From an uncultured Bacilli bacterium (GTDB lineage Bacteria; Bacillota_I; Bacilli_A; RF39; UBA660), in contig CAJTZW010000003.1 of assembly GCA_910584305.1 (NCBI GenBank), forward strand, positions 10,378 through 74,377: 64,000 nucleotides of DNA. The letters are read 5' to 3'. This document shows, piece by piece, positions 10,394-38,785 of the stretch. Positions within the stretch are counted from its first letter, which is position 1. Every line of letters starts with the position of its first letter. A model generated the notes under the pieces. That model had not been told where the DNA came from, did no database searches, and was given only the letters and a program-made list of their open reading frames with translations. A program made the translations under genes and the position numbers.

Positions 10394-12561
10394 TATTTAA
10401 AAATCCTTTCTACTTCTAATACGGCTGGATTTGATTCAATATCTCGAACAAACTTTTCCAAATCTTCCTTATTTTTAACCAAAATAGTTATATCATATGT
10501 TACATCATCATGATGCATAAAAGTACTTACATTTTGTACCAAAATATTTTGATTGGATGTTTTTGATACAATATCCAATAACATATTCTCAATCTTCTGT
10601 GCGTGTATCAAAAGAGTTGTAGGATACTTCTTTTCCGTAACCTCATTCCAATGTACACCAATCGTTCTTTCATCTATATCCTTGACATTAGGGCACATTG
10701 ACCTATGAACTGTAATTCCGTATCCTTTTGTAATATACCCTATAATTGTATCACCTGGAACTGGTTTACAACAAGAAGCAACATTTACCTTGATATGATC
10801 AATACCCTCTACTAAAATATCATCCTTTATCTCAGACAAATCTACATTCTTTGCCTGTTTCTTACGAAGTAATATATCTTCTTTAGAAGAATCATCTAAA
10901 ATCAAATGAAACAAAGAACCAACAGTTAATCGATTACTTCCTAAATTCATATATAATTCTTCTATATTTTTATACTTATATTCCTCTAATATCTTTTCAA
11001 TATTCTCACTTGATAGAAATTCATTAAATACAATCTTACGTTTACGGAGTTCTTTAAGAAGAAGTTCCTCTCCATGTTTCTGATATTCTTCTTTATCAAT
11101 TTTATTAAAAAATGACTTTATCTTATTACGAGCCCCAGTTGTCTTGGCCATTGTAATCCATTCACGACTAGGCCCAGCAGAGTTTTTATTTGTATTAATC
11201 TTTACAATGTCATTATCATGTAACTCATAATCCAAAGGAACAATATTTCCATTCACAATTGCACCAACCATTTGATCACCCACTTTAGAGTGAACACGAT
11301 AAGCAAAGTCAATTGGATTTGCACCACTTGGAAGTTCAATAACATCTCCATTGGGTGTAAATACATAAATAGTATTCTTAAACACATCTTCTGTAACTGA
11401 TTTTACAAAAGCCTCATCACTTGCTTCTTCATTATTAAGTTCCATAATAGAACGGAAAAATTGCAATTTAGACTCCATACTATTTTGAATCGCAGGTTTA
11501 CCACTTCCACCATTTTCCTTATAAGACCAGTGAGAAGCTATACCACGTTCAGCCACTTCATCCATCTCATAAGTACGGATTTGAATTTCAAATAAATAAC
11601 CATCAAATCCAAAAACAGTTGTATGCAAACTTTGATACATATTTGTTTTAGGCATTGCAATATAATCCTTAAAACGCTTAGGCAAAGGTCGATACTTAGA
11701 GTGGATTACCCCAAGTGCTTGGTAACATTCTTGTTCTGTATTTACAAACACACGTAAAGCCAGTAAATCATAAATATCACTAAATTTCTTACCTTTATCC
11801 AATTTTTTGTAAATACTATAAATACTTTTCGCACGGCCCTTTATTTCATGTGTAATTCCATTTGTATTCAAAAGGGTAGAAACACGATGTTTCATCTCCT
11901 CTACAACAGAATCCCTCTCTACCTTGGATTGATTTAATTGTTCAACAATACCAAAATAAACATCTGGTTTAGAATAACGAAGACATAAATCCTCAAGTTC
12001 ACTTTTCCACAAATTCATACCAAGGCGATGCGCTATTGGAACCAAAATATCTAAAGTTTCTTTTGCTTTCTCCTTTTGTTTGTGTTCAGGATGAACCCAA
12101 AGTGTACGTATATTATGTAATCGATCTGCAAGTTTGATAAAAATAACTCGTACATCATTACATAGCCCCACTAAAATCTTTCTCTGTGTTGCTATTTGAG
12201 AAGCATTCTCTGCAGAATCAAAATTAAGTTTATTAATTTTTGTAACTCCATCTACAAGATCCGCAATCACTTTGCTAAAATCACGCTCCAACTCCTCTTT
12301 AGTTGTTGGAGAATCTTCAATTACATCATGCAGAAGTCCTGCACATAGCGTTTCATAATCAGCTTGTATATCTGTTAAAATATAAGCAACATGTAAAGGA
12401 TGTTCAATATAATCTTCCCCTGTTAATCTATAGGTTCCAAAATGAACATTGGCAGCAAAATCATATGCCTTTCGAATCAGAGAAAGCTGCTCCTCCTCCT
12501 TAATATATGTAGATACCTTTTCTATCAAATCATCAAACGTAATTTTGATATTTTTTGCCAT
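10393..12561 (-). CDS. relA: bifunctional (p)ppGpp synthetase/hydrolase RelA/SpoT (Rel)
   Basis: 722 aa with HD hydrolase motifs (HPLHVAYIL..GLLHDVIED), RelA_SpoT synthetase region (..YQSLHTTV..), TGS and C-terminal ACT-like regions. Confidence 0.9.
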   Translation of the reverse strand: MAKNIKITFDDLIEKVSTYIKEEEQLSLIRKAYDFAANVHFGTYRLTGEDYIEHPLHVAYILTDIQADYETLCAGLLHDVIEDSPTTKEELERDFSKVIADLVDGVTKINKLNFDSAENASQIATQRKILVGLCNDVRVIFIKLADRLHNIRTLWVHPEHKQKEKAKETLDILVPIAHRLGMNLWKSELEDLCLRYSKPDVYFGIVEQLNQSKVERDSVVEEMKHRVSTLLNTNGITHEIKGRAKSIYSIYKKLDKGKKFSDIYDLLALRVFVNTEQECYQALGVIHSKYRPLPKRFKDYIAMPKTNMYQSLHTTVFGFDGYLFEIQIRTYEMDEVAERGIASHWSYKENGGSGKPAIQNSMESKLQFFRSIMELNNEEASDEAFVKSVTEDVFKNTIYVFTPNGDVIELPSGANPIDFAYRVHSKVGDQMVGAIVNGNIVPLDYELHDNDIVKINTNKNSAGPSREWITMAKTTGARNKIKSFFNKIDKEEYQKHGEELLLKELRKRKIVFNEFLSSENIEKILEEYKYKNIEELYMNLGSNRLTVGSLFHLILDDSSKEDILLRKKQAKNVDLSEIKDDILVEGIDHIKVNVASCCKPVPGDTIIGYITKGYGITVHRSMCPNVKDIDERTIGVHWNEVTEKKYPTTLLIHAQKIENMLLDIVSKTSNQNILVQNVSTFMHHDDVTYDITILVKNKEDLEKFVRDIESNPAVLEVERIFK

Positions 12562-12592
12562 ATTATCACTCCTTTACAAAGCCTTCAATATT

Positions 12593-14842
12593 TTAGGAAT
12601 TAATACCTTTTACTTTTAATTCTTCTGTTTCCTTCTCTTCATACCATTTTTTCTTTGCAGGCTTTCCAATATTATGTTTTTCAATAAAAATCCAAAGTTG
12701 ACTCGCTATAAAAATCGATGAATAAGATCCTGCAATTAAACCAATTAATAATGCCACATTAAAATAGAAAATCTCATGTGATCCTAGGAAAATAAGCGCA
12801 AAAACAGGGAACAATGTTGTAATGGTTGTAATTAAACTTCTGCCTATTGTTTGACATAAACTTACATTTACAACACCTTTTAAATCATCTAGATTCTTAA
12901 CACTTTTGCCTTTTAAATTTTCACGAATACGGTCAAATGTAACAATTGTATCATTAATAGAATATCCAATAATAGATAAGATCGCAGCTATAAAAATTGT
13001 AGAAACTTCAAATTTAAATAAACTAAAGATAGCTACAATCATTCCAACATCATGGAATAAAGCAACAAGCCCGCTAATTGCATAACTAAACGTAAAACGA
13101 AGAGAAATATAAATGATAATACCTATACATGCAATCACTAACGAATAAATAGCATTTTTAATAAGTTCACGCTTTACAACATTGGATACAACACCAATAT
13201 CCGTTTTCGCTTGATACTTTTCAACAAAATACGTCTCCGTTTTAGTAACCTCATCTTGTTCTAAAGAATTATCGACAACGATACTTACATTTGTATCATC
13301 AATATATTCAATAGATTCTAAAGTAAACCCTAACGTTTTAATATCTTCTTTTAATGTATCCTCTGTAATATTCTCTTTAAGTTGTAAGGTAATAGAGGAT
13401 CCACCTTTAAAGTCAATACCTAAATTCATACCCTGCATACCAATCGAAACAATGCCCGCTATAAGTATAACAATACTAATTGTGACAAAGATTTTACTCT
13501 TCTCTACAAAATTAATTTCCTTAATTCTCTGATTTTTCTTTTCATTTCTATCTTTTCTAAATCCAATAAAGAAATTTTGCTTTTGATCAAACTTTCCAGT
13601 CTGTACAAATTTATTTAATAAGAAACGTACAAGCACTACCATTACAATCATTGTAACAACAATACTAATCATAAGCATTGTAGCAAATCCTTTAATACTA
13701 CTTTCACCAAAAATAAACAAGATAATAGCTACAATAAATGTTGTAATATTAGAATCAACAATACTTGCAAGAGACTCCTTATTTCCAAGCGAACATGCAT
13801 TCTTAAATGATTTACCATGCCCAAGTTCATCTTTAATACGAGCAAAATTGATTACATTAGCATCCACTGCCATTCCAATACCAATTACAGCAGCTGCAAT
13901 TCCAGGAAGTGTAAGTACTCCTCCAACTACCCAGAAAGTCGCAAATGTTAAAAATGTGTATAAAACAAGTCCAACAGAGGCAACAAATCCTGCAAAATGA
14001 TATACAACAATCATAAACAAGATAATCAAACAAATTCCAACAACACCAGCAACAAATGTTTTTTGAAGAGCATCTGCCCCAAAACTAGCTCCAACTGTTT
14101 TTGAAGAAATCTCTGTTAGTTTTGTTGGAAGACTACCAGAATTAATCAAATCGACTAAATCCTCTACTTCCTCCATAGTAAAATTTCCTTGAATAATGAC
14201 ATCGCTAGCAAAACCTTGCGAAACCGTAGCAGCTGATAAACATCCTGAAGAAGAAGCAGCCCCACAAGTAGTGGTAGAATAACTATCTACACCCTCATCA
14301 AAATCAAGCCATACAACCATTGTGTTATCATCAGACTCACTCAATTTTTTAGTCACTTTATAAAATGTATCTTTATCTTTTACAGAAAGTGATACAGCAG
14401 GTTTTCCACTAGCATCTTGTCCTACTTTAGCCCCACCACTTTTCAAAACATCACTATTCATAAGTAAATTATCACTTGTATCACGGAAAGTTAAATTTGC
14501 AGCACTACTAAGCAACTTTCTAGCATCTTCTGAGTTCGTTACTCCAGCAAGTTGCACACGAATATGATTGCTTCCCTCAACCGTAATTACGGGTTCTGAT
14601 ACTCCTAAAGTATCAATTCTTCTTAACATCGTTTTATATGTACTTGTCACCATATCAGATGTCACATCTCTACCATCAATCGATGATACATCATATAAAA
14701 CTTCAAATCCGCCTTGTAAATCAAGACCAAATTTTAAACTTTTAAATAACCAAGGCATACAACCTAAACTAACGATAAGTGTAATTAAAACATACACAAT
14801 AGGTCGAAGCACACCCTTTTTCTGTATTTCCTTTTTTGTCAT
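12593..14842 (-). CDS. secDF: protein translocase subunit SecDF (fused)
   Basis: About 750 aa with a large periplasmic loop and two 6-TM SecD/SecF halves. Start set at MTKKEIQ (GGAGGA SD) rather than the longest ORF. Confidence 0.9.
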   Translation of the reverse strand: MTKKEIQKKGVLRPIVYVLITLIVSLGCMPWLFKSLKFGLDLQGGFEVLYDVSSIDGRDVTSDMVTSTYKTMLRRIDTLGVSEPVITVEGSNHIRVQLAGVTNSEDARKLLSSAANLTFRDTSDNLLMNSDVLKSGGAKVGQDASGKPAVSLSVKDKDTFYKVTKKLSESDDNTMVVWLDFDEGVDSYSTTTCGAASSSGCLSAATVSQGFASDVIIQGNFTMEEVEDLVDLINSGSLPTKLTEISSKTVGASFGADALQKTFVAGVVGICLIILFMIVVYHFAGFVASVGLVLYTFLTFATFWVVGGVLTLPGIAAAVIGIGMAVDANVINFARIKDELGHGKSFKNACSLGNKESLASIVDSNITTFIVAIILFIFGESSIKGFATMLMISIVVTMIVMVVLVRFLLNKFVQTGKFDQKQNFFIGFRKDRNEKKNQRIKEINFVEKSKIFVTISIVILIAGIVSIGMQGMNLGIDFKGGSSITLQLKENITEDTLKEDIKTLGFTLESIEYIDDTNVSIVVDNSLEQDEVTKTETYFVEKYQAKTDIGVVSNVVKRELIKNAIYSLVIACIGIIIYISLRFTFSYAISGLVALFHDVGMIVAIFSLFKFEVSTIFIAAILSIIGYSINDTIVTFDRIRENLKGKSVKNLDDLKGVVNVSLCQTIGRSLITTITTLFPVFALIFLGSHEIFYFNVALLIGLIAGSYSSIFIASQLWIFIEKHNIGKPAKKKWYEEKETEELKVKGINS

Positions 14843-23193: not shown

Positions 23194-24480
23194 TTAAATC
23201 TTATATGCTCCGCATCCATTATAAGCTGTTGTTTTAACATATCTTTTGATTTTCTCATGAGAAAGGCTTCCCAAATCCAGTTCTCTAAAGCGATTGCTTT
23301 TACTTAACAAACGACAGTTACTACCATCCTCAAAAATATAATAGCCCTTTGAATTACCAATTAAAATCATTTCTTCTTCTATTCCAACCCTATCACTAAA
23401 TATATTATAATTATTTTGATTTAAAGCATTTTTTAAATACTTAGTATGCTCTCTTTTTACTTTTTCAGGTAACTGTTCATATAGATTAGAAGGAATATAA
23501 GGGGAATTACAATACTCACATATATATGAACAAACAATTTTTCTTTCTTTAAGATATTCTATTGTATAATCTAAATCATCCTGTGTTTCAGTAGGAAACC
23601 CACTCATTAAAATGGTATGTATATTTTTCCCGGCTTCTTGCAACTTTGCAATATAAAAATCATACTCTTCTAAGTTATGCCCTCTACCCATCTTCTTAAG
23701 TAGTCTATCTGAAGCGGTTTCTAGTTGCATACTAACTTGTTGCACCTTAGGACTATGCATTAATTCCTCTAATAATTCTGGGTACATATTCCTAGTAGTT
23801 AATTCCAAAACAGCCAACTTCCATAAACCCTCTTCCAAAGACAAATCATGTATTAATTGATGTAACATTGGTTTATTATACAAATCAATCCCATATAAAG
23901 TAGAGTTATCACCACCTAAAGTGATACATCTAGTTCCCTTGTGAATCAGTTTCCTTAAATAGGATAATAACATATCATATGGTACAGACTCAACCTTTGA
24001 ATTATTATAATTCGTTTTACAAAAAGTACATCGATTACTACAACCATCCTCAATAAAAAATTGAATAGAAGCATTATTGTTATACATATACCTTGTTCGA
24101 TTTTCTAATCTAGTCTTATAACTATTCCTTTGATTCATCCCATAAATATAATTGTATAACGGTACTATCCAGTCTTTATTTTGAATAATTTTAATTGCTC
24201 GATCATCATGAAAATTCCTTAATATATCATTCATTCTTGTTAAGCACCCAACAATTATCAATGTAGCGCCATCTTTTTTCAAACGATTCACATCATATAA
24301 TTCATTTAAACATTTTGTAATGGTATCCTCAACACCGCCACAAGTTATATAAACAATGTAATCGGCTTCTTTTAAATTGTCAGTAAAATTTAACATTTCA
24401 TCTTCTTGAATGGAATTAATTAACTTTGCAACTAATGGATATTCTCGAATACATCCGTTTAGAAAAATATCTATCTTCAT
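23194..24480 (-). CDS. MiaB/RimO/MtaB-family radical SAM methylthiotransferase
   Basis: 428 aa. MTTase N-domain cysteines at about C10, C47, C79 (NGC, ITCGG, VGCL). Radical SAM CSNRCTFC (CX3CX2C). C-terminal TRAM-like ..DRVGIEEEMILIGNSKGYYIFEDGSNCRLL.. A second CSYICEYC motif is also present (see findings). Confidence 0.7.
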   Translation of the reverse strand: MKIDIFLNGCIREYPLVAKLINSIQEDEMLNFTDNLKEADYIVYITCGGVEDTITKCLNELYDVNRLKKDGATLIIVGCLTRMNDILRNFHDDRAIKIIQNKDWIVPLYNYIYGMNQRNSYKTRLENRTRYMYNNNASIQFFIEDGCSNRCTFCKTNYNNSKVESVPYDMLLSYLRKLIHKGTRCITLGGDNSTLYGIDLYNKPMLHQLIHDLSLEEGLWKLAVLELTTRNMYPELLEELMHSPKVQQVSMQLETASDRLLKKMGRGHNLEEYDFYIAKLQEAGKNIHTILMSGFPTETQDDLDYTIEYLKERKIVCSYICEYCNSPYIPSNLYEQLPEKVKREHTKYLKNALNQNNYNIFSDRVGIEEEMILIGNSKGYYIFEDGSNCRLLSKSNRFRELDLGSLSHEKIKRYVKTTAYNGCGAYKI

Positions 24481-29305: not shown

Positions 29306-29980
29306 TTATTTTTTATGATTTAATTGATAAACGAAGCTGTCATTGATTGCATCAATATCCTTTTTATCAGTAAAAACATCATTTTCATACATTTGTAACC
29401 TATTCAATAAACTTCTAAATCTATTTAATATTTCTATCTGCTTTCTATCAGTATTGCCCCCTACAATCATCTCCTGCTGTAATTCACAATCTAATTTCTC
29501 ACTATACCATTGTATTCCAATGTTCTCCAGCAATTCAATTCTTTCTTCACTTATTTTATGGTCACGGCCTCCTTTCCCTTTATAAGCTGCCCTCTGGGTG
29601 TTAATCCATTCCCCTAACTTTACACCTTTCTCATTCTTTTCATATCCATTTACTGTTTTAAAATTGAATGGTATATTTAAATTGCCATGATGCTCATAGT
29701 ATGCTTTAGCTAATTCATACATATCATTCCACTTACTATCAAAAATATTCCATGCCATTCCAATTTTTTCTAGTAATTGAATTCTTACTTTATTAATCTT
29801 ATGATTTTTATAATTTGTTCTTTGCGTACTAATCCATTTTCCTAACAATACACCTTCATCATTCTCTTCATACCCATTCACTGTTTTAAAATTGAATGGT
29901 ATATTTAAATTGCCATGATGCTCATAGTATGCTTTAGCTAACATATACATATCTGGCCATGTCATAGTTAATCTATTCAT
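29306..29980 (-). CDS. helicase-associated (HA) domain protein, two tandem HA repeats, no helicase core
   Basis: The unit W.DMY.LAKAYYEHHGNLNIPFNFKTVNGYE.N..GV.LG.WI.TQR..YK occurs twice, matching the HA domain that usually follows helicases. Start set at MNRLTMTW (GGGAGG SD). 24-bp gap to the ASCH gene, so probably co-transcribed. Confidence 0.6.
   Translation of the reverse strand: MNRLTMTWPDMYMLAKAYYEHHGNLNIPFNFKTVNGYEENDEGVLLGKWISTQRTNYKNHKINKVRIQLLEKIGMAWNIFDSKWNDMYELAKAYYEHHGNLNIPFNFKTVNGYEKNEKGVKLGEWINTQRAAYKGKGGRDHKISEERIELLENIGIQWYSEKLDCELQQEMIVGGNTDRKQIEILNRFRSLLNRLQMYENDVFTDKKDIDAINDSFVYQLNHKK
29649..29710. repeat. 62-bp perfect direct repeat, copy 1 (intragenic, HA-domain gene); copy 2 at 29882-29943
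   Basis: actgttttaaaattgaatggtatatttaaattgccatgatgctcatagtatgctttagctaa occurs identically twice, 233 bp apart, within more extended roughly 85% similar repeats that encode the two HA domains. Confidence 0.8.
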
Positions 29981-30220
29981 AATTAACCTCCCTAAAAATC
30001 TTTGTTCTCTGCAAAGAATCAAATAGAGTTATTCTACTTACAATTGTATACTTAATAACTCCTTCAAATTTCATATATGTGATACGCACTATAATAACAT
30101 AAAAGTCTATCTATGACAAGCCCTAGAATGCTTACCAATATAGTTTTAGTAACCTCTTATTAAATAGTAAATTACATCTTTTAAAAGTTTGTTAACTTAT
30201 ATAATACATCAAATAATGTC

Positions 30221-30244
30221 AATAAAATGCGCATAAAGCGCATT
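30221..30244 (-). terminator. rho-independent terminator after DUF2207 paralog 1
   Basis: aatgcgc-ataaa-gcgcatt with a T-run on the minus strand. Confidence 0.6.
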
Positions 30245-30276
30245 TCAACGATATAGTTTATACCAAATGGTAATAG

Positions 30277-32631
30277 TTAGAAGCGGCCACCACCTCCGCC
30301 ACCACCAAACGAACCACCGCCAGAAGAAAATCCGCCACCAGAACCAGACCCAGAGGAAAATCCTCCATCACTACTAGACGAATGTGCGGCAGTATAGGCA
30401 CTTTGAGCAGAACTATAGGACTTTGTTATAGCTCGTGATATATATCGATTCATAGTATACAAATCAAGATATATATTGAAAGAATCATTTGGTGCATTTA
30501 CCATCTCTACTTTCATAGCTTCTATGACCTTTTTTGCGCAACCAAATACAGTCGCATACACCAGATATTTTTCCCACAAAGCAACTTCTATCACTTCTTT
30601 ATCATAAAATCTTCCAAAATCATTTAAAAAGTTTCTAAAAGCTTTCCATTTTCTATAGTCTTCAGCACCTTTTTCTGTTCTTTTATTTGAATAGAACATA
30701 CAAGGCATGAGTCCAATTGATAGCACTAAAGTAGTAACATAAATAATCACAGATTGACGATAAAATTTCTGGTCACAGATAAGTATAATCTGAACAATTG
30801 AAATAATTATACAAGCAAATAACGCAATACCAAAAATCGCCTTATCTTTAGAGCTCGAAAATATAGATACCGATTTAACAACTGCCAAAACAATTACAAA
30901 TAATAAAAATGGAATCACTAGCAATGGAACAATTGATATCGCTAGTATTATAAAGAAAATTATAAGAAAGGATGTAGGCTTACCATTTTTCTTCTGTTTC
31001 TCATCAGATTCAAAAAACATATATTTTCTCGCATTAGAAAGCGCCTTCCTTTGATAAGAATTCCATCGTCTGATAAACCCATCATAGTCCCCTTTCGCAG
31101 CAGTTTTCATATGCTTAGTTTCTATACTAGATTCGCCATTAAAAATCAAATCCAACAGTTTTGATTCTAAATCCGTTACTAGTATTTCACCACTCTCATT
31201 CAATGTTAATCGATAGTTTTTAGAAGTCAATTTCTCAGCAATAATAATTTTTCTATGAATTAAATCAAGTAAAGTCGCAGTCATTGCACTATCTTTAATT
31301 TTTTTATGAAATAGATAAGATACTGTCTCAGGAGAATAATCGCTAGGAACTTCTCTCCAATATTTCTGACTAAACTCTGTCTTTGGATCCTTTACATACT
31401 TTTTATAAATAGAATATCCAATAAACAATATAATGGCTAATAAGATAAAACCGAAAATATAATTTATCCTCTCTCGAGCTAACTCTGATTCTCTAACAAC
31501 ATTCTCAACGATAACAAGCTGATTCAATAATTCATTTTTAACATCCAAATTATCAAGTATCTCGATTTTCTCCTTCGCATTTTTATATGAAAGATATGTC
31601 GGATACTCTAAAGCAACTGCTAATTCTTCTCTTGCCTCAGCTTCCTCTATCCCATCAAGAATTAATTTAAGATTTGAAATTTTTTCTAAATATTCATTTT
31701 TTATATCAGAATCAGGAAGCTTATCTACATATCTGAGTGCAGATTCATAATTACCCCTTGTCGGATCAATCTCAAATTGATTTACATGTGTAATCGCATC
31801 TTGTAATTGCATTTTCTCTTGATTTTCTCTTTCATAATTTGCCTTTGCTGCAGCATCCTCTTCATATAATAAAATCTTATCCAATGCATTTACATTCGTT
31901 TCTTTCTTACTATCTTTTATAACATCTAAATCAAAAGTAGCTCTAACATCAATTGCCCTATAACTACTTAAATTTTGAATAGATGCATATACAGTTTCTG
32001 AATTCATAATTTGAACAGAACCATTTAATGGTCCATGCCCCCAAACTCTGATATTGGTATTCCCTGGAAAATGAAGATACCCTTTTAAATTACCAACCGA
32101 TTCTGTAAGCGCATTACCAACAATATTCCATCCAATTTCACCAACATCATTATGGCGAATTGCCATATTTAAAATACGATATTTGATATAAAATGCTTTA
32201 TGATAACTAGATGGATTATACATTAAAATACGATTCCCATAATTTTCATCATCCACTGTATAAACACCATAATCACCTTTAGAAGCACTGTATACTTTTT
32301 CGAATATATCCCCACCAATATTTGAAAAATCAAAACTAGAAGTAACTGGAACCGCCCTTATCTCAAGAATCTCAAGTCCTGTTCCATTATGAATAGAACT
32401 ACCACCAAAAGAAGCCATAGCAGGATCAAATTCATATACACTAGTATTCGCATATTCTATAATTCTTTCAAATCCATTAAAATCTCCCGTTAAATTAAAA
32501 TATTCCTGCACCAAAAGATCCCCACTAGATTCAACCGTCGCATCAATATAATAGTTTTCAATTCCATACGCCTTAACACAAAAAGGAAAAAACATAATAA
32601 AAGTGAAAAAAAGAATTTTTAATTTATTCAT
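30277..32631 (-). CDS. DUF2207-family membrane protein (paralog 1, 784 aa) with C-terminal Gly-rich tail
   Basis: Signal/TM, N-terminal extracytoplasmic domain, coiled-coil linker, TM bundle, ..WEKYLVYATVFGC.. and GGGFSSGGGSFGGGGGGGRF tail, as in DUF2207 predicted membrane proteins. The first 253 aa are identical to the downstream paralog. Confidence 0.6.
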   Translation of the reverse strand: MNKLKILFFTFIMFFPFCVKAYGIENYYIDATVESSGDLLVQEYFNLTGDFNGFERIIEYANTSVYEFDPAMASFGGSSIHNGTGLEILEIRAVPVTSSFDFSNIGGDIFEKVYSASKGDYGVYTVDDENYGNRILMYNPSSYHKAFYIKYRILNMAIRHNDVGEIGWNIVGNALTESVGNLKGYLHFPGNTNIRVWGHGPLNGSVQIMNSETVYASIQNLSSYRAIDVRATFDLDVIKDSKKETNVNALDKILLYEEDAAAKANYERENQEKMQLQDAITHVNQFEIDPTRGNYESALRYVDKLPDSDIKNEYLEKISNLKLILDGIEEAEAREELAVALEYPTYLSYKNAKEKIEILDNLDVKNELLNQLVIVENVVRESELARERINYIFGFILLAIILFIGYSIYKKYVKDPKTEFSQKYWREVPSDYSPETVSYLFHKKIKDSAMTATLLDLIHRKIIIAEKLTSKNYRLTLNESGEILVTDLESKLLDLIFNGESSIETKHMKTAAKGDYDGFIRRWNSYQRKALSNARKYMFFESDEKQKKNGKPTSFLIIFFIILAISIVPLLVIPFLLFVIVLAVVKSVSIFSSSKDKAIFGIALFACIIISIVQIILICDQKFYRQSVIIYVTTLVLSIGLMPCMFYSNKRTEKGAEDYRKWKAFRNFLNDFGRFYDKEVIEVALWEKYLVYATVFGCAKKVIEAMKVEMVNAPNDSFNIYLDLYTMNRYISRAITKSYSSAQSAYTAAHSSSSDGGFSSGSGSGGGFSSGGGSFGGGGGGGRF

Positions 32632-32680
32632 TACTCGTACACCTTACCTTTAGTTAATTATACCATAAAATAATACGAAT
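31873..32680. repeat. about 808-bp near-identical direct repeat, copy 1 (5' end plus 5'UTR of DUF2207 gene); copy 2 at 34006-34812
   Basis: First 759 coding nt and about 50 nt upstream are essentially identical between the two tandem genes. Their 3' ends and terminators (30218-30330 versus 32697-32800) are also about 85% similar. Confidence 0.8.
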
Positions 32681-32699
32681 GATTATAAAAAATTGAAAA

Positions 32700-32723
32700 A
32701 TAAAAATGCGCATAAAGCACATT
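32700..32723 (-). terminator. rho-independent terminator after DUF2207 paralog 2 (one mismatch in stem)
   Basis: aatgcgc-ataaa-gcacatt with a T-run; a duplicated copy of the 30221 element. Confidence 0.5.
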
Positions 32724-32748
32724 TCAACGATATACCAGATGGCAGTAG

Positions 32749-34764
32749 TTAGAAACGGCCACCACCTCCACCACCACCAAACGAACCACCGCCAGAGGAA
32801 AAGTCTCCACCAGAACCAGATGATGAACTTCGACCAGAAGACAAACCATATGACCTACTTGAAACTCTATATACAGAATAAATAGAGTCTGTAATACATT
32901 TAGAAAATTGTAAATCACAATACATATCCCCTGAAATAGAAGAATAGTCATCTATTGATTTTAATCTCATAGCTTTTAAAATTCTCTTCGAACATCCAAA
33001 TAAAGTCGCATATACTAAATATTTTTCCCAAAGTGTAACTTCCATCACTTCTTTATCCTGAAAGGATCCAAAATCATTTAAAAATCTTTTAATAGCTTTC
33101 CACTTTTTATATTCTAAAATTCCTTTTTCTGTTCTTTTATGAGTTTTACGTAAAATAATCAGTGATGCAATAGCGCCAATTAAAATCATAAAATATATCC
33201 ATATATAAACATTTGAAATTGCCATATCCTGTAATTTATATATACAAAAAAGAATTATATCACCATAGATTATGCCAAAAACAAGCTTTTTTAAATCATT
33301 CGTTGGAGAACCTAATATCAACTCTATAATACATATATAAAAAAGTACAAGAAAAATAAACCCTACATTTAATGAATATATAAGTATCAACAACAAAGGA
33401 ATTAAAAATGAGAAAAGAAGGAGAAGAAGTATATCACCTTTTTTTGATTTAGATTTAGATTCACTATCTTTGCCATTATCAATTCTCTTCTTTTTAGACT
33501 TTTCTATATCTTGTTCATAAAATTCATATTGTTTTGCAATTTCTAAACATTGATTATAATAATTACTATAATTCATGTGATAAGATTGCCTAGCTTTCTT
33601 TGCATATTTTTTAATATCTTTAGTCTCAATACTACTTCTTTTATTAAAGATAAACTTTATAAGTTTTTCATAGACAGGGGGAATTGTATCATTATATTCC
33701 TTATTCAATATAAGCTTATAATTATTTTTCCCTTTCTTTTCGACCATAACTATTTTTCTTTCAATTAAATCAAGCACTGAGGCAGATAATGCACGCTTAT
33801 TTATTTTCTTATAAAATAAATAGGAAATAGTTGTCGGAATATAATCATCATCTATATTTCTATAATATTCATGATTAAAGAAAAGCTTAGAATAATATCG
33901 TCTATACACCAATATTCCTAAAACAAGTAAAATTATGATACATAGAACAACTTCCACCCATTGTATCAATCTGTTACGATTTGCAAGATTAATCTCATAA
34001 AGAATAATCTTATCCAATGCATTTACATTCGTTTCTTTCTTACTATCTTTTATAACATCTAAATCAAAAGTAGCTCTAACATCAATTGCCCTATAACTAC
34101 TTAAATTTTGAATAGATGCATATACAGTTTCTGAATTCATAATTTGAACAGAACCATTTAATGGTCCATGCCCCCAAACTCTGATATTGGTATTCCCTGG
34201 AAAATGAAGATACCCTTTTAAATTACCAACCGATTCTGTAAGCGCATTACCAACAATATTCCATCCAATTTCACCAACATCATTATGGCGAATTGCCATA
34301 TTTAAAATACGATATTTGATATAAAATGCTTTATGATAACTAGATGGATTATACATTAAAATACGATTCCCATAATTTTCATCATCCACTGTATAAACAC
34401 CATAATCACCTTTAGAAGCACTGTATACTTTTTCGAATATATCCCCACCAATATTTGAAAAATCAAAACTAGAAGTAACTGGAACCGCCCTTATCTCAAG
34501 AATCTCAAGTCCTGTTCCATTATGAATAGAACTACCACCAAAAGAAGCCATAGCAGGATCAAATTCATATACACTAGTATTCGCATATTCTATAATTCTT
34601 TCAAATCCATTAAAATCTCCCGTTAAATTAAAATATTCCTGCACCAAAAGATCCCCACTAGATTCAACCGTCGCATCAATATAATAGTTTTCAATTCCAT
34701 ACGCCTTAACACAAAAAGGAAAAAACATAATAAAAGTGAAAAAAAGAATTTTTAATTTATTCAT
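32749..34764 (-). CDS. DUF2207-family membrane protein (paralog 2, 671 aa)
   Basis: Identical N-terminal 253 aa, divergent middle (lacks the long coiled-coil of paralog 1), similar C-terminal ..WEKYLVYATLFGC.. and Gly-rich tail. Confidence 0.6.
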   Translation of the reverse strand: MNKLKILFFTFIMFFPFCVKAYGIENYYIDATVESSGDLLVQEYFNLTGDFNGFERIIEYANTSVYEFDPAMASFGGSSIHNGTGLEILEIRAVPVTSSFDFSNIGGDIFEKVYSASKGDYGVYTVDDENYGNRILMYNPSSYHKAFYIKYRILNMAIRHNDVGEIGWNIVGNALTESVGNLKGYLHFPGNTNIRVWGHGPLNGSVQIMNSETVYASIQNLSSYRAIDVRATFDLDVIKDSKKETNVNALDKIILYEINLANRNRLIQWVEVVLCIIILLVLGILVYRRYYSKLFFNHEYYRNIDDDYIPTTISYLFYKKINKRALSASVLDLIERKIVMVEKKGKNNYKLILNKEYNDTIPPVYEKLIKFIFNKRSSIETKDIKKYAKKARQSYHMNYSNYYNQCLEIAKQYEFYEQDIEKSKKKRIDNGKDSESKSKSKKGDILLLLLFSFLIPLLLILIYSLNVGFIFLVLFYICIIELILGSPTNDLKKLVFGIIYGDIILFCIYKLQDMAISNVYIWIYFMILIGAIASLIILRKTHKRTEKGILEYKKWKAIKRFLNDFGSFQDKEVMEVTLWEKYLVYATLFGCSKRILKAMRLKSIDDYSSISGDMYCDLQFSKCITDSIYSVYRVSSRSYGLSSGRSSSSGSGGDFSSGGGSFGGGGGGGRF

Positions 34765-34815
34765 TATTCGTACACCTTACCTTTAGTTAATTATACCATA
34801 AAATAATACAGACTA

Positions 34816-36036
34816 TTATAAAATATTTTTATAAAATTGAAGAATAAATGTCGTTCCAACTTTCTTTTGGGATTCTACTTTAATATAGCCATTTTGTTTT
34901 TCAATAATGCTCTTTGCCATATTAAGACCAATCCCAATACTCTCCTTATTTGTATTCCCATGATAAAATCTCTCAAATATGTGAGGTAAATCTTTACTGG
35001 AGATTCCTTCACCAGTATCCTGAATCTTAATTTCAGTGTAAATAGGATTCTCTGTATAGGAGATAGTAATCGTTCCAGCCACAGGTGTATGTTCATATGC
35101 ATTTTTTATAATATTAACTAGCGCTTCAACGGTCCACTTTTCATCCACAGAAATACAAATATTGTTATCCCCTTCTATAATAATATTCTGCTCCTTTAAC
35201 TCTATTGGGATTCGAAGAGGAGAAATTGCCCTCTCAAGCAATTCATATACAAAAACATTCTCTTGTTTCAGTGTAACCATTCCACTATCTAACCTAGATA
35301 ATTTTAAAAGAGATGTTACAAGCCACTCAATTCGTTCTAATTGTGCACGATTTTTACTAAGCATTTCTTTCTTTTTCTCATAATCAATATCATCATTCTC
35401 TAAAATATCATTAATCACATACATACTAGTCAGTGGTGTTTTTAACTGATGTGAAATATCTGACAAAACAGAAGCTAAGTGCTTTTTTTCATGACTAGAA
35501 TAATTTTCTTTCTCCTTTAACAAATTCGTAACTTTATAAATATCATTTTTAAGAGAACTAAACTCACTCTCTTTATATTCACGAATATCAATAGAATAAT
35601 CTCCTTTTAAAACCCTATTAAAATAATCCTGAATCTGTTCTATTCTTAGATATTCCTTTCTCTTGTCATATAAATAAATAAAAAGCAAAACGAAAATAAA
35701 TACAATCCCTATTAAAAGAGTATGATAAACCATCTGCCATTTTAAGTCTTTCAAAGTTCCCATATATTCATAGCCATCAATATCATTAAGTCCATACTTC
35801 TGTAAAATACGCTCCCCATCTTCTGTAGAAATTGGATGAATTAATGAATCCATAACATCTTCTTCTAAATCAGGATACTTGTTAAAAATAGAGGATACAA
35901 TCGAATTATAATTATCATACAATATCTCTTTATAAGAACGATACAACATGTAATTAGATACAATAGAAACACCCAAAAATAATGAACTTATTATAATAAA
36001 AATCTTTATATATCGTTTTGTACTTGTATGAAACAT
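34816..36036 (-). CDS. sensor histidine kinase (two TM, HisKA plus HATPase_c)
   Basis: H-box ..SDISHQLKTPLTS.., N-box ..NIIKNAYEHT.., G-boxes ..DTGEGIS.. and ..GIGLNMAK.. Start abuts the response-regulator stop. Confidence 0.8.
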   Translation of the reverse strand: MFHTSTKRYIKIFIIISSLFLGVSIVSNYMLYRSYKEILYDNYNSIVSSIFNKYPDLEEDVMDSLIHPISTEDGERILQKYGLNDIDGYEYMGTLKDLKWQMVYHTLLIGIVFIFVLLFIYLYDKRKEYLRIEQIQDYFNRVLKGDYSIDIREYKESEFSSLKNDIYKVTNLLKEKENYSSHEKKHLASVLSDISHQLKTPLTSMYVINDILENDDIDYEKKKEMLSKNRAQLERIEWLVTSLLKLSRLDSGMVTLKQENVFVYELLERAISPLRIPIELKEQNIIIEGDNNICISVDEKWTVEALVNIIKNAYEHTPVAGTITISYTENPIYTEIKIQDTGEGISSKDLPHIFERFYHGNTNKESIGIGLNMAKSIIEKQNGYIKVESQKKVGTTFILQFYKNIL

Positions 36037-36711
36037 TTACACACCTACTTTATACCCTATACCACGAACCGTAATAATAATTTTGGGAGAATTTGGATCA
36101 TCCTCTATTTTCTCTCGAATTCTTTTTACATATACAGTTAATGTATTGTCATTTACAAAAGCTTCATTCACATCCCATATATCAGCAAGAATCTTTTCAC
36201 GACTAAATACTGTATTAGGATTTAAAGCAAGAATTAACAAAATCTTATACTCTAAAGCTGTCAGCATAACATCAATTCCATTTTTAAATACTTTGGCTTG
36301 TTTCATATCAATTACAACATCATGTAACTCTATAACATTGGAATCATTTTTCCCCTTCGTTCTTCGTAAAACATTCTTAATACGAGATACAAGTTCCCTT
36401 GCTTTAAATGGTTTTGTAACATAATCATCTGCTCCCATATCAAGGCCCATAACAACAGATACTTCCAAATCATTTGCGGTCAAAAAGATAATAGGAACAT
36501 CTCGAACCTGTTTCATCTCTTTAAATAAATCAAAGCCACTTCCATCCGGTAAGTTTACATCAAGTAAAATCAAGGCAATAGAATCATCAAAACATTTCCT
36601 TGCACACTCCATACTATCTGCTTCAACTACAGTAAATCCTTCTTGTTCTAAATAATACTTAAGCCCAAGACGAATCGAACTATCATCCTCTATCACCAAA
36701 ATTTTAGACAT
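36037..36711 (-). CDS. OmpR-family response regulator
   Basis: Receiver domain (..ILVIEDD..D..LPDGSG..K..) plus winged-helix trans_reg_C (..TVRGIGYKV). Start set at MSKILVIEDD (GGTGA SD). Confidence 0.85.
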   Translation of the reverse strand: MSKILVIEDDSSIRLGLKYYLEQEGFTVVEADSMECARKCFDDSIALILLDVNLPDGSGFDLFKEMKQVRDVPIIFLTANDLEVSVVMGLDMGADDYVTKPFKARELVSRIKNVLRRTKGKNDSNVIELHDVVIDMKQAKVFKNGIDVMLTALEYKILLILALNPNTVFSREKILADIWDVNEAFVNDNTLTVYVKRIREKIEDDPNSPKIIITVRGIGYKVGV

Positions 36712-36771
36712 ATGTATCACCAAATCCATTATACTATAAAAATTCAATCTATGAATGACTTTTTTGTAACA

Positions 36772-37458
36772 TTAAAATAAAGATAAAATGAATGGAGAAA
36801 GCAAAATAGATGTAATATTTACAACAATATGAAAAACCATAGAAAGTCGAATATCATGATACTTTTGATATATAAAGGTAAGAAAATATCCTATAAAGCA
36901 AGCGAATACAATCTGGAATATACCCCCTGTATGAAATAAAGCAAAGATAAGAACGGATAGATAGAAAGCAACTTTCCCACGAAATACTATTGAAAGACGT
37001 CCATATACAATTCCACGAAATAATAGCTCTTCTAATATAGGACCCAAAATACCAGTTGCCACAATAACAGTGATTGTAATAGAAGTTGGGACCATTTCAA
37101 CCTGTAAAAAATGTTTACTCATGATAATTAAAAAATTAAGAACAAACGACAATAAAAATGATACTACACATAATAAAATAATCTTCTTAATAGAGACAGG
37201 CACTCTTGCTACGCGATATTTTTTATATATGAAATAAAAAAGGGGTATAAATATAAGACACTCAATTCCTACAATAAATAAAGTTTGACCATCCATATAA
37301 TTTAGTAAAATCCCATTCGAACTAGCGTCATCCCAATTGACACCAGAATTCTGTACCATATAAACAAGCATAAATACGCCACAAATAAAAACTTGACCAA
37401 TTCCAAACAGAATTGGCCAAAGTAATACCTTAACAACTTCTAAAAATTTAGAAATCAA
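36772..37458 (-). CDS. CPBP family intramembrane glutamic endopeptidase (CAAX protease-like)
   Basis: Motifs ..EELLFRG.. and ..FALFH.. in a polytopic protein. Confidence 0.7.
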   Translation of the reverse strand: MISKFLEVVKVLLWPILFGIGQVFICGVFMLVYMVQNSGVNWDDASSNGILLNYMDGQTLFIVGIECLIFIPLFYFIYKKYRVARVPVSIKKIILLCVVSFLLSFVLNFLIIMSKHFLQVEMVPTSITITVIVATGILGPILEELLFRGIVYGRLSIVFRGKVAFYLSVLIFALFHTGGIFQIVFACFIGYFLTFIYQKYHDIRLSMVFHIVVNITSILLSPFILSLF

Positions 37459-37460
37459 GA

Positions 37461-38354
37461 TTATTTTCCTTTAGGTTCCTTAAACATCTCTGAAACAGTT
37501 GTTCCAAGTGCTGCAATATTTTGAAGTTCAGATGGAATAATAATTTTTGTGGCTTGACCATTGGCTACATTCGATAATGCTTCAAAACTCTTTAAAGTAA
37601 GCACAGATGTATCCGCTTTTGCATCCTTTAATAAACGAATTCCTTCAGCTTCTGCTTGTTTTAATTTCAGCATTGCCTCAGCTTCACCCTCTGCAATACG
37701 AATTTGTGACTCTTTATTTGCTTCAGCACGTAAAATCGCACTCTCTTTCTCACCTTCAGCAATTAGAATGCTAGATTTCTTTTCACCCTCTGCTTGTAAG
37801 ATTTTCTCACGTCTTTCACGCTCTGCACGCATTTGTTTTTCCATAGCCTCTTGTATATCACGAGGTGGAATAATATTCTTAACCTCTACACGGTTTACCT
37901 TAATACCCCATGGATCAGTTGCCTCATCCAAAATAGAACGCATTTTAGAATTGATAATATCCCTCGATGTAAGTGTTTGATCAAGTTCTAACTCTCCAAT
38001 TAAATTACGAAGTGTTGTTGCAGTTAAATTCTCAATAGCGCTAATAGGATGTTCCACTCCATATGTATAAAGCTTAGCATCCGTAATTTGATAATACACC
38101 ACTGTATCAATTTGCATCGTTACATTATCTTTCGTAATAACCGGCTGTGGAGCAAAATCCTTTACAATCTCTTTTAAAGTTACTACATTTGATACACGAT
38201 CTAAAAAAGGTAACTTAAAATGTAATCCATTCTTCCAAGTCGTATAATAAGACCCAACTCTCTCAATTACATATACTTTTGCCTGCGGTACAACTTTAAC
38301 ACTTGGAATAATTAATACCACAACCAAGATTAGTAAAATTATAAAAATATCCAT
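37461..38354 (-). CDS. SPFH/band-7 (stomatin/prohibitin-like) protein
   Basis: N-terminal TM plus SPFH core plus C-terminal coiled coil with EAE/AEG repeats. Start set at MDIFII (GGGAGG SD), which removes the overlap with nfeD. Confidence 0.8.
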   Translation of the reverse strand: MDIFIILLILVVVLIIPSVKVVPQAKVYVIERVGSYYTTWKNGLHFKLPFLDRVSNVVTLKEIVKDFAPQPVITKDNVTMQIDTVVYYQITDAKLYTYGVEHPISAIENLTATTLRNLIGELELDQTLTSRDIINSKMRSILDEATDPWGIKVNRVEVKNIIPPRDIQEAMEKQMRAERERREKILQAEGEKKSSILIAEGEKESAILRAEANKESQIRIAEGEAEAMLKLKQAEAEGIRLLKDAKADTSVLTLKSFEALSNVANGQATKIIIPSELQNIAALGTTVSEMFKEPKGK

Positions 38355-38356
38355 AC

Positions 38357-38785
38357 TTAATCCTCCCATTTCCCTACTTTTAATTTTACACCATCTATCT
38401 CAAGTATTTTAACAATACTATCGACCTTAAATTCTTCATTAGAAATCGCTGTCCAACGCTTCCCATCAACCTTGACTTCACCAGAATTGTTTAAAGAAAT
38501 ATTCTCTGTAACAATCCCCTTCATACCAATAATTCTATCTGCATTTGTTCTCACATCATTCTTGCGAAAAAACTTAGAAAGCAAAGGCCTTGTCGTTATC
38601 AATAAGACAATTCCTAAAATTACAAACACAGCAAGTTGAATAAAGAAATTATCAGTTACAAATGACAACAATAAAGAAACAATTCCACTTGCAACAAACC
38701 AAATTGTTGTCAAATTAATTGTCATAACCTCCACTGCAGCAAGTAAAATAACAATCATTAACCAAATATAAAACATATGAATCAC
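38357..38785 (-). CDS. NfeD-family membrane protein (partner of SPFH)
   Basis: 142 aa; N-terminal TM helices plus C-terminal OB-fold segment. Conserved NfeD-SPFH operon arrangement. Confidence 0.65.
   Translation of the reverse strand: MIHMFYIWLMIVILLAAVEVMTINLTTIWFVASGIVSLLLSFVTDNFFIQLAVFVILGIVLLITTRPLLSKFFRKNDVRTNADRIIGMKGIVTENISLNNSGEVKVDGKRWTAISNEEFKVDSIVKILEIDGVKLKVGKWED

Follow-up and report, generated by a model that had tools for sequence, protein, structure and literature searches.

In bacteria, segmental gene conversion and concerted evolution between paralogues are exemplified by tufA and tufB in the enterobacteria, and homology-facilitated illegitimate recombination and the merging of alleles are known at surface-protein loci. 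Gene conversion between paralogues has been surveyed throughout the prokaryotes (PMC6053082) and is described at PE/PPE and antigen loci in M. tuberculosis (PMC12046097, PMC13061034). The DUF2207 family is represented by SMU.243 of S. mutans. Cells that lose it tolerate acid and oxidative stress less well and are impaired in biofilm formation (PMC10457818), a phenotype that points to an envelope or stress role. We describe here two adjacent DUF2207 genes, A and B, in a 64-kb stretch of DNA from an uncultured, gut-type Bacilli bacterium (the window). We consider it likely that the locus is a mosaic pair, two intact envelope-protein genes of different ancestry that were made mosaic by general, RecA-type homologous recombination (gene conversion).

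Table 1. Coordinates of the features at the DUF2207 locus, numbered along the window.
Feature	Position	Strand	Description
Gene A	30277..32631	minus	DUF2207 protein, 784 aa, widespread long form
Gene B	32749..34764	minus	DUF2207 protein, 671 aa; N-domain joined straight to TM1
5' module ahead of gene A (R_A)	31873..32676	minus	Identity to R_B at an offset of 2133
HK-proximal 5' module (R_B)	34006..34809	minus	45-nt leader and codons 1-253 of B (signal peptide and whole extracytoplasmic DUF2207 N-domain)
Extended -10-like box in R_A	32657-32665	minus	Putative; same box as in R_B, then SD-like AAGGTG
Extended -10-like box in R_B	34790..34798	minus	Putative; TGgTATAAT, consensus match
A-specific helical stalk (predicted)	31447..31872	minus	About codons 254-395, between N-domain and TM1; ~140 aa
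B body	32821..34005	minus	TM1, cytoplasmic domain, TM bundle, conserved C-terminal helices; orphan; GC 25.5%
3' arm of A	30224..30348	minus	Last 24 codons (Gly-rich tail), 3'UTR, terminator hairpin
3' arm of B	32703..32820	minus	Terminator-like hairpin at 32703-32725
Spacer, B terminator to R_A	32677..32702	minus	Includes TTTTATAAT, which lines up in register with the sequence around the HK stop codon ahead of R_B
Strain-variable unit	32677..34809	minus	2,133 bp: R_B, B body, 3' arm, spacer; missing from L001 and L045-L050
OmpR/PhoB-class two-component system	34816..36747 (HK 34816..36036, RR 36037..36747)	minus	51 nt upstream of B

Both proteins are members of the DUF2207 family, exceeding the gathering thresholds for PF09972 (the N-domain, matched over aa 24-233; A 62.7 bits, B 63.1 bits, cut-off 24.4) and PF20990 (DUF2207_C; A 151.8 bits, B 128.2 bits, cut-off 33). 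A hydropathy scan and AF2 models (pLDDT 83.8 for the B protein) give each a signal peptide or N-terminal anchor, an extracytoplasmic N-domain and several TM segments, and the near-invariant columns W/D/F/LWEKYLVYA and the Gly-rich tail are kept in both. Gene A has full-length orthologues at 35-60% identity. Its product is longer than that of B by 113 aa, and the extra segment that had been remarked on in it (about aa 254-395) is a predicted helical stalk (helices at 250-413 in the AF2 model), conserved among long-form orthologues and absent from B. By fold only, the modelled ectodomain resembles the luminal domain of ribophorin I/OST1 and the N-terminal beta-domain of the M1 aminopeptidases; the identity is 6-12%, neither a catalytic M1 domain nor OST partners are found here, and the resemblance suggests nothing firm about function.

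The two genes open with a direct repeat that is far beyond chance: 804 nt at an offset of 2133 nt with one mismatch, made up of 45 nt of leader and 759 nt of coding sequence, including a stretch of 761 nt of exact identity. These measurements are close to those of the earlier note, which had described an 808-bp module of 759 coding nt and about 50 nt of UTR. The mismatch (32634/34767) lies in the 5'UTR, 3 nt ahead of the ATG; this is module position 43, where every one of the four two-gene assemblies has G in R_A and A in R_B. The extended -10-like boxes in the leaders are putative promoter elements, picked out by their match to the consensus. At the module edge (31872/31873) identity falls from 100% to about 45% within a few nucleotides.

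The bodies that follow were previously held to differ completely, but they are 36% identical in amino acids over about 350 aa (E = 1e-54), with about 50% nucleotide identity, and share the DUF2207_C domain. Between A and B, dS rises from 0 in the module to 1.30 in the body and drops back to 0.31 in the 3' arm; the bodies are close to saturated at synonymous sites (pS 0.62, dS ~1.3), and dS between sister lineages is only 0.014-0.053. The B body is closer to long-form proteins of other species (43-45%) than it is to A (36%), has no relative above ~40-45% identity in an exhaustive HMMER search of 1.84 billion representatives, and has a GC content of 25.5% against 30-31% elsewhere. In neighbour-joining (NJ) trees drawn without bootstrap support, A and B have identical N-domains that nest among long-form orthologues; the A body groups with P0002/4/6/11 and the B body sits on a long branch beside P0026/19/17/20. 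The N-domain and body histories are thus incongruent, as judged from these unbootstrapped NJ trees and from BLAST identities. The excess of N-domain over C-terminal identity averages 15 points (sd 9) across 10,573 family pairs, and this pair is the only one in which it exceeds 60.

Similarity returns at the 3' end of the genes, where the Gly-rich C-termini and terminators are indeed alike: identity climbs sharply from ~42% to ~92% at about 30348, and the 3' arms are ~92% identical, non-coding bases included, with one 7-nt indel. Between the B terminator and R_A, the spacer matches the HK stop-codon region in register at 10 of 14 bases, including a 9-mer. The 3' end of HK has probably left a decayed remnant here, although the match is no more than suggestive, the sequence being AT-rich. 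The head-to-tail tandem arrangement, the leader, tail and terminator held in common and this possible HK-tail remnant ahead of the second copy suggest that the unit as a whole once underwent duplication. The earlier note went further and read the locus as a recent tandem duplication, after which the middle of one copy would have diverged quickly in place while selection held the N-domain constant. That history is highly improbable, given that divergence is not uniformly low: the bodies are near saturation, yet the 3'UTRs differ by only ~8% and the modules by at most 0.9%; the B body lies nearer to the proteins of other species than to A; and protein-level selection offers no means of preserving identity at 156 synonymous sites and along a 45-nt leader.

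The B unit varies between strains. The tandem two-gene layout recurs in the independent assemblies L002, L043/L051, L044 and L052. Assembly L001 matches the window except that precisely one 2133-bp period is missing, with flanks that are 99.95-100% identical, as anticipated by the suggestion that the repeats would permit deletion; its retained module has the HK-proximal state (A) at position 43. L001 could also reflect an assembler skipping the loop and not a true deletion. In the sister lineage, six Logan contigs from six samples have the order RR-HK-R-A without B, and the B unit is confined to one near-clonal group. R_A and R_B are 99.9% identical (at least 99.1% allowing for collapsed variants) and the sister-lineage orthologue is 98.1-98.3% identical, so that paralogues within the genome are more alike than orthologues between lineages, by a small and assembly-dependent margin. 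Among the near-clonal strains the 804-nt module has 5 variable sites, whereas the flanks and A body have none over 17,434 nt (Fisher p = 1.6e-7). Within each assembly both copies of the module carry identical variants, and four clustered non-synonymous changes fall in an exposed loop at codons 63-71. Only two bodies occur, each of them invariant across strains.

All of the sequences compared are short-read metagenome assemblies. A loop-resolving assembler would reuse a single repeat edge and so force the interiors of repeats to be identical, and position 43, the sole copy-specific difference retained, sits within a typical k-mer of the repeat boundary. For these reasons assembly may account in part for the 100% identity and for the sharing of SNPs by the two copies; a figure for module identity that is robust to this is at least 99.1%, or no more than 7 differing sites in 804. 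To the proposal that the tandem itself is an artefact, arising from mis-joined strains or alleles (HK-R-A with HK-R-B) or from mis-resolution of a repeat, we give almost no credence. Short-read assembly throughout, the identical interiors that loop resolution yields, the presence of one-gene and two-gene forms within the same study (L001 and L052) and a closed loop contig of 2133+30 nt (L053) would all accord with it. Nevertheless, the junction running from the 3' end of B through the terminator and spacer into the module is found in at least five assemblies from three pipelines (NCBI MAGs, ENA and Logan), and L052 spans HK-R-B-spacer together with 170 nt of the second module. An allele of the form HK-R-B-Y would show Y, not the module, past the B terminator, and a 2.1-kb circle without a replication gene is an implausible replicon. 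An assembly artefact, which the earlier note had named as its own refutation, thus fails for the tandem layout but may account for the exact 100% identity of the repeat interiors.

Gene conversion or recombination, already raised in the earlier note as a class of explanation, fits an identical 5' module beside divergent bodies. We count as observed the mosaic profile of identity, the incongruence of N-domain and body, the saturation of the bodies and the fact that some assemblies have the B unit and others lack it; the recombination mechanism is what we infer. Conversion would have copied the 804-nt tract from one gene onto the other, so that the promoter-like extended -10 box, leader and SD travelled together with the signal peptide and the complete extracytoplasmic beta-sandwich domain. 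Because of this copying, A and B would present the same external domain, A on its ~140-aa helical stalk and B directly on the membrane. Homology runs out at the A-specific stalk in one direction and at the upstream flank in the other, and there the tracts stop; the ~92% identical 3' arm may be a trace of an earlier exchange or of common ancestry. Since it is flanked by 804-nt direct repeats, the 2,133-bp B unit would be unstable, and crossing-over between the repeats would delete B to leave RR-HK-R-A. Two clues to the direction of copying were considered: the module tracks A-type orthologues slightly better, and the possible HK-tail remnant ahead of A opposes this. Conversion may still be ongoing. 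It counts against this reading that paralogues with ~50% nucleotide identity would need seeding homology for the first tract. As to the B body, we lean slightly towards import or merging, in which an allele that had diverged in an unsampled lineage would have entered an ancestral RR-HK-A locus; a long-resident paralogue that the sister lineage has since lost is nearly as probable. No donor lineage for the B body was found in sequence searches, and for that reason allele merging stays a model of its origin and not a demonstrated event.

Constant 5' and 3' arms that bracket a variable body also bring to mind a programmed system, in which the arms would be sites for regulated swapping or on/off switching of bodies (cf. 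pilE/pilS and the shufflon), perhaps with excision and re-integration of a 2,133-bp circle. The presence or absence of the B unit among near-identical strains, the closed-loop contig of exactly one period and the clustered changes in the exposed loop are in keeping with such a device. We judge it very unlikely all the same, and the cassette-like variation of the middle that had been envisaged does not hold: the variation consists of the whole B unit and a few module SNPs, while the two bodies are invariant in all strains. No silent cassettes or further DUF2207 sequences are found within the window, no viral or JGI copies were found, and neither a recombinase, transposase, integrase or RT (by neighbouring genes and Pfam) nor meaningful inverted repeats are present nearby. 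A tandem repeat should give just such a loop contig in a de Bruijn assembly. Deletion via an 804-nt repeat calls for no special machinery and, where there is no donor, cannot be reversed.

A different emphasis would make the shared ectodomain a fast-evolving, selected surface target (of phage, bacteriocin or host antibody, for example), with new variants copied quickly to both paralogues and the B unit a gain-and-loss cassette moved by recombination between modules, possibly as a 2,133-bp circle. Its basis is that the module SNPs, present in both copies, are the only polymorphisms in genomes that are otherwise clonal, with 0 differences in ~17 kb, and that four non-synonymous changes cluster in the loop patch. 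This proposal is unlikely; if true, it would represent an unusually fast, domain-restricted concerted evolution that couples two receptors on different signalling bodies beside a dedicated two-component system.

Such a system does lie directly upstream on the same strand, as had been reported. The histidine kinase (HK) has HisKA and HATPase_c domains and two TM segments and the response regulator (RR) has REC and Trans_reg_C domains, making this an OmpR/PhoB-class pair, for which no NCBIfam equivalog was matched at its cut-off. No terminator was seen in the 51-nt gap between HK and gene B. In L042, an HK/RR pair (RR 72% and HK 49% identical to those here) is found beside another DUF2207 gene. 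The adjacent two-component system may regulate the DUF2207 genes.

The locus is a well-defined, if unremarkable, instance of probable gene conversion in bacteria and represents no new kind of biology. It indicates that bacterial recombination can act at the level of the protein domain, homogenising an ectodomain and its expression signals between genes whose membrane and cytoplasmic parts are anciently different, and that the same repeat then generates presence/absence variation between strains. It also urges caution in the comparative genomics of MAGs, where repeats longer than the insert size emerge artificially identical and alleles can collapse. For the widespread DUF2207 family there is now a model, predicted with confidence, whose ectodomain is ribophorin-I/M1-N-like; a stalk-bearing long-form subgroup and a recurrent link to OmpR-type two-component systems have also emerged. 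Like SMU.243 and other DUF2207 proteins, A and B have both the N and the C Pfam domain in full, and each combines a large extracytoplasmic N-terminus with several TM segments and a cytoplasmic C-terminus that ends in a Gly/Ser-rich tail; unlike SMU.243 they form a tandem pair after a two-component system and not beside uppP, and A belongs to the long-form subgroup with the ~140-aa predicted stalk. The locus resembles cases of allele merging in having a divergent B body between homologous arms, a foreign-like GC content (25.5% against 31%), a possible HK-tail remnant at the inner junction and a distribution limited to one near-clonal group. With known bacterial gene conversion it shares paralogues that are more alike within the genome than are orthologues between lineages over a defined tract, sharp tract edges, incongruent trees for the tract and the rest, and direct repeats that also mediate deletion. 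It differs from those systems in being known from short-read assemblies, in having bodies no closer to each other than orthologues of distant taxa are, one of them an orphan, and in a tract that coincides exactly with a single structural module of a two-module membrane protein, namely the promoter-leader, the signal peptide and the whole ectodomain.

Genes A and B, which encode tandem DUF2207 membrane proteins, lie on the minus strand, the strand being one point on which an earlier note is not confirmed. Each opens with a direct repeat, the module, that consists of a 45-nt 5' leader and codons 1-253; the two copies, at an offset of 2133 nt, match across 804 nt with one mismatch, in the leader (32634/34767), and their longest exact identity is 761 nt. 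The 3' arms, comprising Gly-rich tails, 3' UTRs and terminator hairpins, are ~92% identical with one 7-nt indel. Thus the repeat is as that note described it, with an identical 5' part and similar Gly-rich tails and terminators. Its statement that the middles differ completely fails, because the bodies, the parts beyond codon 253, align with 36% identity across ~350 aa (E = 1e-54). The window contains no further DUF2207 sequence.

Features of the DUF2207 locus and their coordinates in the window
Feature	Position	Strand	Remark
Response regulator (RR)	36037..36747	minus	genes B and A come after it
Histidine kinase (HK)	34816..36036	minus	genes B and A come after it
Module, copy opening gene B	34006-34809		
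Gene B	32749..34764	minus	intact ORF, 671 aa
3' arm of gene B	32703-32820		
Module, copy opening gene A	31873-32676		
Gene A	30277..32631	minus	intact ORF, 784 aa
3' arm of gene A	30224-30348		

Both proteins match PF09972 (the DUF2207 N-domain, aa 24-233) and PF20990 (DUF2207_C) well over threshold, and AlphaFold predicts both with confidence (pLDDT 83.8 for B, 82.0 for A). The models predict a signal peptide followed by a beta-rich extracytoplasmic domain of ~230 aa that is the same in both proteins. A helical stalk predicted only in A (helices 250-413) then runs into TM1, whereas in the B model the extracytoplasmic domain meets TM1 directly; the rest of each model is an alpha/beta cytoplasmic domain, a TM-helix bundle, a conserved helical C-terminal region and the Gly-rich tail. 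A sequence search of the PDB returned spurious Gly-linker matches only.

On the evidence of sequence comparison, gene B is best read as a chimera whose A-type arms enclose a body with a distinct and far older origin; this reading draws on the identity profile, synonymous divergence, affinities, trees, orphan status and GC content of B and on the uniqueness of the pair. Nucleotide identity between the A and B units falls from ~100% (804 nt) to ~50% and rises to ~92% in the last 125 nt, with sharp changes at 31872/31873 and ~30348; within the ~50% stretch a single island of 70-83% corresponds to the conserved C-terminal motif. By the Nei-Gojobori method, dS between A and B is 0 in the module, 1.30 in the body (pS 0.62, near saturation) and 0.31 in the 24-codon 3' arm, while between the two lineages of this species it is just 0.014-0.053. 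Stalk-bearing long-form orthologues (full length ~785-810 aa) are widespread, the nearest beyond the species having ~60% identity. The N-module of A and B is 63-72% identical to long-form N-domains and the A body 55-59% identical to its nearest orthologues; the B body is 36-37% identical to A, yet 43-45% identical to other long-form proteins. In neighbour-joining trees the N-domains of A and B group together and the bodies separate, that of B sitting on a long branch. When 1.84 billion cluster representatives were searched exhaustively with HMMER, the closest match of the B body outside its own cluster stood at ~40-45% identity; this search superseded a word-indexed protein search that was insensitive at mid-range and had missed the 43-45% proteins. 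A scan of genome contigs with the family alignment as back-translated patterns, which were too generic, gave relatives that, among the matches listed, were all distant, with 34% identity or less. The B body has 25.5% GC, whereas the window, the module and the A body have 30-31%. Of 10,573 family pairs compared, this one alone has an N-identity that exceeds its C-identity by more than 60 points, and a screen of ~290 family members found the same chimeric signature in none outside this species. The recent tandem duplication proposed earlier is not borne out, given a body dS near saturation and a B body that is nearer to other long-form proteins than to A.

The module starts with GTATTATTTTATGGTATAAT, which holds a perfect extended -10 consensus (TGgTATAAT) and then an SD-like AAGGTG. 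Since both copies have these sites, genes A and B each appear to bear the same putative promoter and leader, as judged from the consensus match. A terminator-like hairpin follows gene B and there is no terminator between HK and gene B. The sequence TTTTATAAT occurs in register at -14 to -6 upstream of both module copies and, at the B copy, the HK stop codon lies inside it; this is suggestive of the spacer before A, in AT-rich sequence, being a degraded relic of the HK 3' end.

Could the tandem layout be an assembly artefact? The junction that runs from the B terminator through the spacer to the module start is found in at least five assemblies from three pipelines. A single-gene B allele would carry other sequence downstream, whereas the observed junction leads into a module. 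On this comparison of assemblies, we consider the layout to be real. One of the assemblies, the 2,163-nt Logan contig L053 (from ERR3199538), corresponds to window 32647-34809 and consists of exactly one 2,133-nt period with a 30-nt self-overlap (its first 30 nt are its last 30) and joins G at module position 43 to the B body. Such a loop contig is expected of a tandem repeat in an assembly graph; an excised circle or amplification of the unit would also give one, and the contig does not prove circles.

The locus was retrieved from other samples by exact-protein look-ups. The two-gene form is present in L002 (GCA_948711815.1), L043/L051 (GCA_948655915.1), L044 (GCA_948856905.1) and L052 (ENA ERZ17760137, run ERR3199567), the last of which ends 170 nt into the second module. 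The near-clonal L001 (ENA ERZ17762391, run ERR3199597, an 81.6-kb contig) has flanks that are 99.95-100% identical and is the two-gene locus minus exactly one 2,133-nt period, leaving RR-HK-module-A body, so the proneness of the repeats to deletion that had been suggested holds. Its module has A at position 43, as does the HK-proximal copy, which is what a crossover within the repeat would predict. A sister lineage, represented by six Logan contigs that stem from six samples, has RR-HK-module-A without B in all of them; relative to the window its flanks are 99.2-99.9% identical, its module 98.1-98.3% and its A body 98.6%. We infer that B is truly absent from this lineage because the contigs are uninterrupted and Logan uses a de Bruijn assembler, which is not known to resolve loops. 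In L038, the contig of the nearest other species, the order is Rce1-like protease, A-type gene and ASCH, with neither the two-component system (TCS) nor B.

Across the near-clonal assemblies there are five variable sites in the 804-nt module versus no differences in 17,434 nt of flanks and A body (Fisher p = 1.6e-7). Four non-synonymous changes (T63A, S64N, E67G and A71T) fall within 25 nt in codons 63-71 and are always linked, with G184V elsewhere; the patch occupies a predicted coil of the ectodomain model between strands 53-59 and 85-95. All four combinations of the protein variants are seen, in A and in B alike, and the copies within one assembly carry the same variants, differing solely at leader position 43. 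The window and L002 differ at only two bases in 22 kb, these being G/A at module position 324, once per copy. Read literally, these data are a textbook case of concerted evolution; the same pattern of identical copies would, however, come from a path-based short-read assembler, which traverses one collapsed repeat edge twice and pops internal bubbles, and the only copy-specific difference to survive is 43 nt from the repeat boundary, inside a typical k-mer. The robust upper bound on divergence between the copies is 7 sites out of 804 (an identity of at least 99.1%). Three of the six near-clonal variable sites (256, 324 and 596, the others being 232, 236 and 245) carry the states of the sister lineage, which suggests that inter-strain recombination may have taken place. 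The codon 63-71 patch may have arrived as a micro-import from a different strain, or it may be an epitope-like patch under selection. A DGR/mutagenic origin for it was rejected: the changes (A>G, G>A, A>G, G>A) are not adenine-specific and there is no reverse transcriptase nearby.

The TCS of the window is of the generic OmpR/PhoB class, with no equivalog above cut-off. A pair on the unrelated contig L042 (7415-11796 versus window 34816-36747; RR 72% and HK 49% identical) also adjoins a DUF2207 gene, although in a different order, with the distant DUF2207 protein P0120 (611 aa) encoded between LemA and RR-HK; the recurrence of this adjacency hints at a possible functional link. L038 and L042 had prompted the idea that RR-HK-B was a separately acquired three-gene module. 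It is contradicted by the sister lineage, in which RR-HK is directly before A with no B, and by the B body, which belongs to the long-form clade and not to the short LemA-linked forms. An NfeD, SPFH/Band7 and Rce1-like CAAX-protease cluster (36772-38785, minus strand) is directly upstream of the TCS. In L038 (378-3474) the Rce1-like gene immediately precedes the A-type gene without a TCS between them, so the protease-DUF2207 adjacency looks older than the TCS insertion.

Just downstream of A, an HA-domain gene (29306-30022, minus strand) has an internal 228-nt direct repeat that is 81% identical (29579-29750/29807-29978). In L044 (11639-12085) this gene is shorter by exactly one 228-nt period (148 aa versus 224 aa), so that either the assembler collapsed the repeat or a further deletion mediated by repeats has occurred beside the locus. 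The sister lineage (L045 and L047, both 12465-13841) has a 458-aa adh_short short-chain dehydrogenase gene in its place (window 29306-30190), with only ~86 nt past the A stop and ~45 nt ahead of ASCH in common; this swap marks the downstream stretch as an apparent hotspot of structural variation in its own right. In L045 (18775-20061 versus window 23194-24480) two ORFs (215 and 197 aa) take the place of a single radical-SAM (UPF0004-type) gene and a nearby acetyltransferase is truncated, these being likely pseudogenes or assembly errors. Gene A (window 30277-32676 versus L047) evolves faster between lineages than its neighbours, with a dS of 0.036-0.053 that is above that of RR and HK (0.014-0.025); its between-lineage dN/dS of ~0.2 indicates purifying selection, apparently within a stretch that is locally more diverged or recombined.

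The surroundings of the locus hold no gene for a recombinase, transposase or reverse transcriptase and no meaningful inverted repeat, and scanning JGI metagenomes and IMG/VR for exact 42-mers gave no match, adding neither assemblies nor a phage link. General homologous recombination is the simplest mechanism. The 5' module would have been homogenised by gene conversion, and the 3' arm likewise at an earlier time; the conversion tract would end where homology stops, bounded at one end by the stalk insertion and at the other by the upstream flank, which is unrelated, and crossing-over between modules would remove the B unit, the 2,133-bp repeat period holding gene B. The gene conversion and deletion-proneness envisaged in the earlier note are retained, and its cassette shuffling is set aside along with the recent duplication. 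For the origin of B we favour an ancestral RR-HK-A locus that received it by import or allele merging, because the B body is an orphan, low in GC, not sister to A and confined to one near-clonal group; it is nearly as likely that B is a resident paralogue of greater age, which the sister lineage has since lost. The affinities of the module track A slightly better, whereas the putative HK-tail remnant before A would point to copying from the HK-proximal position.

The host is a low-GC (30%) member of the Bacillota known from metagenomes only. Bacterial paralogues are well known to undergo segmental gene conversion, and deletion mediated by repeats is equally familiar (for example PMC6053082, PMC12046097, PMC13061034); this locus is a tidy fresh instance in an uncharacterised family.
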